From Escherichia coli (GTDB lineage: Bacteria; Pseudomonadota; Gammaproteobacteria; Enterobacterales; Enterobacteriaceae): a stretch of DNA of 64,000 nucleotides. The translations under genes and the position numbers were made by a program. The stretch lies in the NCBI RefSeq assembly GCF_030013205.1, contig NZ_CP122648.1; one strand, given 5' to 3'. The stretch's first letter is position 1. Each line of letters begins with the position of its first letter. This document shows, one piece after another, positions 5,761 through 6,620 of the stretch. The notes beneath the pieces are model-generated. The model was not told where the DNA came from. It made no database searches and saw only the letters and a program-made list of their open reading frames with translations.

Positions 5761-6620
5761 TTATGCTGCTAATAATCTATCCAGTGACTGCTGAGCAATA
5801 ACCAAATGCTGACCGCCAAATAACCTTGCACGATTTAACAGCGTGTAGAGTTGGTAAACCGGTTGACGTTCAAGGAAATCGGCAGGTAGCGGGGATACTG
5901 ACTGATAGCCGTCATAGATTTGTGGCGGCTGTTCAGTATGCAGCGGTAACATCGCCAGGTCGCACTCTCGGTCACCCCAGTAGCAGGCCGGGTCGAAAAT
6001 GTACGGGCCATCCGGACCCAGCGCACAGTTGCCGGACCATAAATCGCCGTGCAACAGAGAAGGCTGCGGTTGATGCGAGGCCAGACGCTGCTGAATATGC
6101 TCGACGATGGCATCGATATTGCCGAAAGCGATCCCTTTTTCTGCCGCCAGTTCCAGCTGCCAGCCAATCCGTTGTTCAGCAAAAAAGTTGACCAGCGACG
6201 TTGCCAGGTGTTGGGCTGGGGAGTTGTGGAGAGCGCGTTATCAAAATCGAGGCCAAATTGCGGTTGGTCGCTCCATTGATGTAAACGCGCAATTTGCTGA
6301 CCAAGAATAAATGCGCTATGCGCATCCAGCGGGCGAGGTGGGAGATAATCCATCACCAGAAAACTGTAGTCACGGTCAGCGCCAACTGCCCAAACCTTAG
6401 GCACGGTGACGGTTTTACTACGCGACAGTAACTCCAGTTGGTCGGCTTCGGCGGTAAAACCGGGAAGCAGTTCCCTTTCATCACATTTGACGAAAAAGTC
6501 ACGTCCTGCATAGCGCAAATGCCATGCGGCATGGACTTCTCCGCCAGGCAGTTCATTACGCAGTTCGATTTCGCCTTCACCTAACTGCTCGCTCAAAAGA
6601 CGACTGATTGCCTGCCACAT
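5761..6620 (-). pseudogene. yniA: yniA (fructosamine/ketosamine kinase family) with apparent -1 frameshift in a T-run
   Basis: N-terminal part in frame of ORF 5835..6620 (MWQAISRLLSEQLGEGEIELRNELPGGEVHAAWHLRYAG...QRRWSTF), C-terminal part in frame of ORF 5761..6054 (HGDLWSGNCALGPDGPYIFDPACYWGDRECDLAML...); break at a T-homopolymer near 6185. Confidence 0.7.

Follow-up and report, generated by a model that had tools for sequence, protein, structure and literature searches.

A probable homopolymer under-call behind the frameshifted yniA of Escherichia coli ETEC1748

We concluded, with high confidence, that the frameshift recorded in yniA of E. coli ETEC1748 is a base-calling or consensus under-call of a homopolymer and not a mutation. 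That the reads of this strain very probably carry seven T's where the record has six is what we infer from the sequence of the gene, the sequencing method, a distribution of the allele that is project-specific and incoherent with descent, and the association of the allele with fragmented assemblies. The DNA that we analyzed, called the window here, is 64,000 nucleotides long. It is 100% identical to the ETEC1748 chromosome (NZ_CP122719.1, from 2,289,162) over the first 50 kb, which were compared base for base. In the RefSeq annotation, yniA carries the flag "frameshifted; incomplete" and hxpB (4368-5037) the flag "frameshifted," and these are the only coding sequences flagged as frameshifted within the window. 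As described below, the hxpB frameshift has a separate cause.

Reading frames of yniA and the missing base

The features of the two genes, including the parts of yniA on either side of the point at which the frame is lost, are listed in Table 1. Translation from the ATG at 6620 reads ...NTWQRRWSTF, continues as LLNNGLAG..., and ends at a stop codon in the wrong frame, which gives a 261-aa ORF. The other frame is open from 6201 or earlier, reaches the normal stop (5761), and has the sequence ...NFFAEQRIGWQ...HGDLWSGNCALGPDGPYIFDPACYWGDRECD...LLAA*. A preliminary description of this DNA had yniA reading properly up to ...QRRWSTF and losing its frame in a T run at about position 6185. Both statements agree with the start-codon frame, and we located the run at plus-strand positions 6181 to 6186. 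The same description placed the continuation in an ORF at 5761..6054. This 97-aa ORF exists, but it is only the portion of the C-terminal frame that follows its first TTG.

Table 1. Coordinates of the yniA and hxpB features in the window
Feature	Position	Strand	Remarks
hxpB (yniC) pseudogene	4368..5037	-	670 nt; normal length, 669 nt
hxpB inserted base	4869..4869	-	C on the coding strand, G on the plus strand; GATATG[C]GTGG, no homopolymer
yniA (fructosamine kinase family)	5761..6620	-	whole but for one absent base; 860 nt, versus 861 nt in sister strains
yniA C-terminal part, shifted frame	5761..6180	-	includes the kinase motifs HGDLWSGN and IFDPA plus the normal stop
Premature stop in the wrong frame	5835..5837	-	ends the 261-aa frameshift product; ORF 5835..6620
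Homopolymer at which the frame is lost	6181..6186	-	T6 on the coding strand, A6 on the plus strand; from alignment
yniA N-terminal part, start-codon frame	6187..6620	-	M1 to the run at codons 145-147; Pfam profile positions 1-154

We inserted one A into the run in silico and obtained an 861-nt coding sequence. Its 286-aa product is identical to WP_000267670.1 of the sister strains, which bears out the earlier proposal that the gene is one base short in a T homopolymer and that one extra T restores a 286-aa ORF. Consistently with this, the C-terminal part (5761..6180) shows zero differences from the intact allele. We found no secondary decay in yniA, and the one added base is enough to make the protein the same as that of the sisters. 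The Pfam family PF03881 matches the two frames at profile positions 1 to 154 (N-terminal part) and 145 to 287 (C-terminal part) and matches the intact sister YniA at positions 1 to 287 of 288 (E = 1e-117). Because the two frames jointly cover PF03881, we concluded that they are one gene with a single base absent.

The gene order hxpB-yniB-yniA-ydiZ(ghoS)-pfkB matches that of K-12 MG1655, and the yniA of the window is an unambiguous orthologue of K-12 yniA. The K-12 gene (b1725) encodes a putative fructosamine/ketoamine kinase of family PF03881; it is the same gene with the same neighbors, and the product of the window's copy likewise has 286 aa once it is repaired. The ydiZ orthologue (6726-7016) is labelled "ghoS" by the annotation pipeline; it is a GhoS-family paralogue and not the K-12 ghoS locus. 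A true yniA lesion would leave a product devoid of the catalytic loop (HGDLWSGN) and the subsequent DP motif, as judged from the Pfam kinase alignment and the known kinase fold. Such a lesion would merely add to the null alleles of a deglycation-type kinase that is poorly characterized, and its biological importance would be small.

Distribution of the alleles at the yniA run

The preliminary description had proposed a comparison of orthologues, which gave T7 in the sister strains and an in-frame ACG-T6 in K-12. In the sister strain ETEC4067, the site reads ACT TTT TTT GCT and encodes T-F-F-A. In K-12, codons 145 to 147 read ACG TTT TTT GCT, so that six T's are in frame. The lineage of the window differs from K-12 by a synonymous ACT, which lengthens the run to T7, but the record has one T fewer and reads AC TTTTTT GCT. 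Nothing else in yniA is altered.

We surveyed the site in the 5,423 complete E. coli genomes that have the locus, and it is in frame in 5,411. A blastn search with a 47-mer query found exact matches to the intact T7 allele in 1,492 of these genomes, and 3,919 carry the intact K-12-type ACG-T6. The frameshift allele of the window was present in only 6 of the 5,423, namely, ETEC1748, ETEC4068, ETEC6333, ETEC1701, ETEC1738, and Nord8. All but Nord8 come from a single nanopore-only project. This enrichment gave P values from 7e-6 to 8e-11 by Fisher's exact test, depending on the number of project genomes assumed to be at risk. The T6 frameshift allele is also found in GCA_974481785.1. A literature search on strain Nord8 found no paper. 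A different contraction occurs in ECZP248 (NZ_CP034784.1; locus position about 620 to 625), in which ACG TTTTT GCT (T5) lies in a K-12-type background and the gene is annotated as frameshifted.

We then set the yniA indel against descent within the near-clonal O139:H1 edema-disease lineage, using 25 kb from nine genomes. Eight SNPs and one IS2 insertion in this region are mutually compatible, and all fit one tree. This tree separates 1748, 4067, and K_EC180 from the rest, joins 4068 and 4075 by the IS2 insertion and one SNP, and joins 6333 and 6334 by five SNPs. The yniA indel cuts across these sub-clades: 1748, 4068, and 6333 are frameshifted, but the genome nearest to each of them (4067, 4075, and 6334, respectively) is intact. 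ETEC1701 is frameshifted as well. Thus, the closest relative could be resolved for three of the four frameshifted genomes, and each of the three is paired with an intact sister. Placed on the tree, the yniA indel requires at least four independent events in O139:H1. ETEC1738, which is of another lineage and has an intact hxpB, adds a fifth. We found no homoplasy at the other variable sites in the 25 kb across the O139:H1 genomes. Between ETEC1748 and ETEC4067, the missing yniA base is the sole difference in 50 kb. All six of the O139:H1 complete genomes from outside the project that we checked (K_EC180, W13-16, P15-25, EC556, EC571, and EC581) carry T7. Two of these, W13-16 and P15-25, were assembled with Unicycler from PacBio and Illumina reads (PMC8798679).

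To look beyond complete genomes, we used a collection of 15 billion proteins, in which exact-sequence matches were tallied as indexed blocks according to the longest contig carrying them. The exact 261-aa frameshift product occurs in 417 blocks, and in 415 of these the longest contig falls below 50 kb. For the exact intact 286-aa protein there are 75,322 blocks, 60,498 of them with a longest contig of at least 50 kb. The frameshift fraction is therefore 2.7% on contigs shorter than 50 kb versus 0.003% (about 3e-5) on longer ones, an enrichment of about 800-fold (odds ratio, about 850). A real allele should be independent of assembly contiguity, whereas an artifact of noisy data should depend on it, so the enrichment on short contigs supports an artifact.

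We also looked at individual Logan runs (ERR15602717, SRR17649137, SRR24940050, and ERR15941358). The contig from SRR17649137 (L017) has five homopolymer contractions in the 6.8 kb around yniA (A7, G5, C4, A5, and the yniA T7), one of which truncates hxpB, a profile that is typical of an assembly of noisy reads. Three other Logan contigs (L016, L018, and L020) carry the T6 allele and are otherwise free of indels. Except for the yniA base, L016 is the same as many ST69-like complete genomes with T7. Rare real T6 variants, such as those of Nord8, GCA_974481785.1, and the clean contigs L016, L018, and L020, may thus exist, and the clean contigs are the chief source of doubt about the artifact.

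Sequencing method and explanations of the yniA frameshift

The genomes of the project, including ETEC_1748 (a 5,096,790-bp chromosome at 313x coverage), were described by Vereecke et al. (PMC10151945 and its supplement). They were sequenced with Oxford Nanopore Technologies (ONT) R9.4.1 only, using the SQK-RBK004 kit, base-called with Bonito 0.4.0, assembled with Trycycler, and polished with medaka 1.5.0, with no Illumina or other short-read polishing (PMC10151945). Accuracy was estimated as Q50 on a control strain (PMC10151945). At Q50, about 1 error is expected in 100 kb and about 0.6 in a 64-kb window, so one error here agrees with the authors' own estimate. Nonrandom deletion errors after A/T homopolymers, which fragment genes, have been described in R9.4 assemblies (PMC12007338). 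The yniA case resembles the homopolymer errors of R9.4.1 long-read-only assemblies in several ways: it is a single-base deletion in an A/T run in a medaka consensus with no short-read polishing, the same site is hit in several assemblies from the same pipeline, and accurately assembled close relatives have the longer run.

Our model is that the true sequence of ETEC1748 is very probably ACT TTT TTT GCT, encoding an intact 286-aa YniA, and that the R9.4.1/Bonito/Trycycler/medaka pipeline, with no short-read polishing, called the seven T's as six. According to this model, the under-call would put the catalytic C-terminal half out of frame in the record, and the annotation pipeline would then call a pseudogene. 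The window contains 32 runs of at least seven bases, and those in the first 50 kb all agree with ETEC4067. Given that the other homopolymers are right, that coverage is 313x, and that accuracy is Q50, the error would have to be site-specific. In this respect, the assembly of the window is unlike a generally noisy one, since it is clean otherwise, with no other mismatch to ETEC4067 in 50 kb, and the error would be a residual one at one site. Sequencing depth did not account for the pattern: frameshifted assemblies have 128 to 313x and intact sisters 169 to 257x, with no obvious relation. We also rejected the reverse case, with a true T6 and an erroneous T7, because the intact protein is found in Illumina-backed hybrid assemblies and in some 60,000 blocks that include a contig of at least 50 kb.

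One alternative is a genuine, recent slipped-strand deletion from T7 to T6 in the ETEC1748 isolate or culture, which would make the gene a true null whose product is without the HGDLWSGN and DP motifs. A 7-nt homopolymer is a plausible site for slippage, coverage is high, and the remaining 50 kb are in full agreement with ETEC4067. Sporadic contractions also appear in unrelated lineages (Nord8, GCA_974481785.1, ST69-like Logan contigs, and, from T6 to T5, ECZP248). However, slippage would have to have produced the identical mutation independently at least four times among 11 near-clonal project isolates, and once more in ETEC1738, with no homoplasy at other variable sites in 25 kb. It would also have to be missing from all six non-project O139:H1 complete genomes checked, to have a frequency of only about 3e-5 on contigs of at least 50 kb, and to have left no secondary degeneration. 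We therefore consider this explanation improbable. A broader version is that the T7 tract, which about a quarter of E. coli carry through the synonymous ACG-to-ACT change, is a true hotspot of slippage at which T6 nulls recur, including in porcine O139:H1, perhaps with leaky -1 rescue at U_UUU_UUG, and that some of the T6 alleles in the clean L016, L018, L020, and Nord8 sequences are true. We regard this version as very unlikely. The preliminary description had left artifact and natural slippage side by side; the project-specific distribution, the conflict with phylogeny, and the link to fragmented assemblies strongly favor the artifact and disfavor slippage.

It is hardly credible that the run is a functional switch, either as a phase-variable T tract or through programmed -1 ribosomal or transcriptional slippage at AC U_UUU_UUG that would express the T6 form. 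Repeated length changes at one tract do look superficially like phase variation, and the T6 mRNA would hold a formal X_XXY_YYZ heptamer (U_UUU_UUG) at which a -1 slip is predicted to give T-F-F-A. Slipped-strand mispairing at homopolymer tracts underlies the phase-variable contingency genes of Haemophilus, Neisseria, and Campylobacter, and, as in yniA, a change in the length of a mononucleotide tract within the coding region alters the frame. Unlike the tracts of those genes, however, the yniA tract is short and is not conserved: 5,411 of the 5,423 genomes are in frame, and a synonymous change breaks the tract as ACG-T6 in 3,919. The variation lies almost wholly in one nanopore-only project and in fragmented or otherwise poor assemblies, and the gene is of an atypical class. 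Several general considerations also count against a switch. Typical contingency tracts are longer than 7 nt, E. coli has proficient mismatch repair, and deglycation by a cytoplasmic kinase is not a function that is typically phase variable.

If the yniA frameshift is an under-call, as we conclude, nanopore-only assemblies of E. coli repeatedly show a false frameshift at the yniA T7 run, among them at least five RefSeq "complete" genomes of one project. Sites of this kind would raise the number of apparent pseudogenes, make outbreak isolates seem to differ where they do not (as with ETEC1748 and ETEC4067), and might be mistaken for phase variation.

The hxpB frameshift and other features of the window

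The hxpB and yniA frameshifts lie 0.9 kb apart, and the preliminary description had pointed to them together as two frameshifted genes within 1.5 kb. We found no support for a link between them. Removal of base 4869 in silico restored a 222-aa HxpB, and 19 complete genomes of an O139:H1-like lineage, from several laboratories, countries, and technologies, share the +1 C allele. The carriers are all 11 of the O139:H1 strains of the project, K_EC180 (Korea), W13-16 and P15-25 (France; Illumina-backed), EC556, EC571, EC581, A20 (a bat isolate), and cS51a (human). Since the hxpB lesion is clade-congruent and technology-independent, it is a real inherited pseudogene of the lineage. Like the yniA lesion, it is a one-base frameshift in a housekeeping-type gene; unlike it, it is an insertion outside a homopolymer. 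An inherited pseudogene should appear as a lesion that is shared by a clade and congruent with other markers, and this is what we found for hxpB but not for yniA. Likewise, independent laboratories and technologies recovered the hxpB lesion in this lineage but not, in the six non-project genomes checked, the yniA lesion. A common cause, such as a locally bad assembly, was rejected because the hxpB lesion is a non-homopolymer insertion seen by several laboratories. We concluded that the hxpB frameshift is a genuine lineage-marker pseudogene with a cause separate from that of yniA and that the nearness of the two is a coincidence. Adjacent frameshifts in one record can thus differ wholly in cause, and the sequences of relatives tell them apart.

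Homopolymer lengths differ among relatives at other positions as well. At 27673-27679 (context, 27662-27685), an A7 run occupies the position of the slippery site in a truncated orfA fragment of the IS3 family (...EYGRAKK) that is fused to a phage tape-measure fragment, and the length of the run sets whether the two fragments share a frame. The run is A7 in all three project genomes checked (ETEC1748, ETEC4067, and ETEC4068) and A6 in K_EC180 and W13-16, the latter Illumina-backed. The difference may be real, or it may be a second homopolymer discrepancy, one that is project-wide. K_EC180 has private one-base G-run contractions at the equivalents of window positions 4340 and 39824, one of which causes ydiV to be annotated as "frameshifted" there. 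The contractions probably reflect errors in the K_EC180 assembly, and the window is unaffected.

From ihfA to btuC (19.3 to 35.9 kb), the window holds a mosaic of remnants with a hok/gef gene, an ogr-like gene, and P2-like prophage remnants. An hxsDBCA His-Xaa-Ser radical-SAM cluster lies inside this mosaic at 20162-23559, and an ISCro1 element (IS66 family) is inserted beside a VgrG-like fragment. The mosaic varies among the sisters: ETEC4068 and ETEC4075 have an extra IS2 upstream of hxsD, and prophage content differs in ETEC4068 and W13-16. Elsewhere in the window, espL1 (9418-11316) is intact, whereas its K-12 counterpart, arpB, is a pseudogene.
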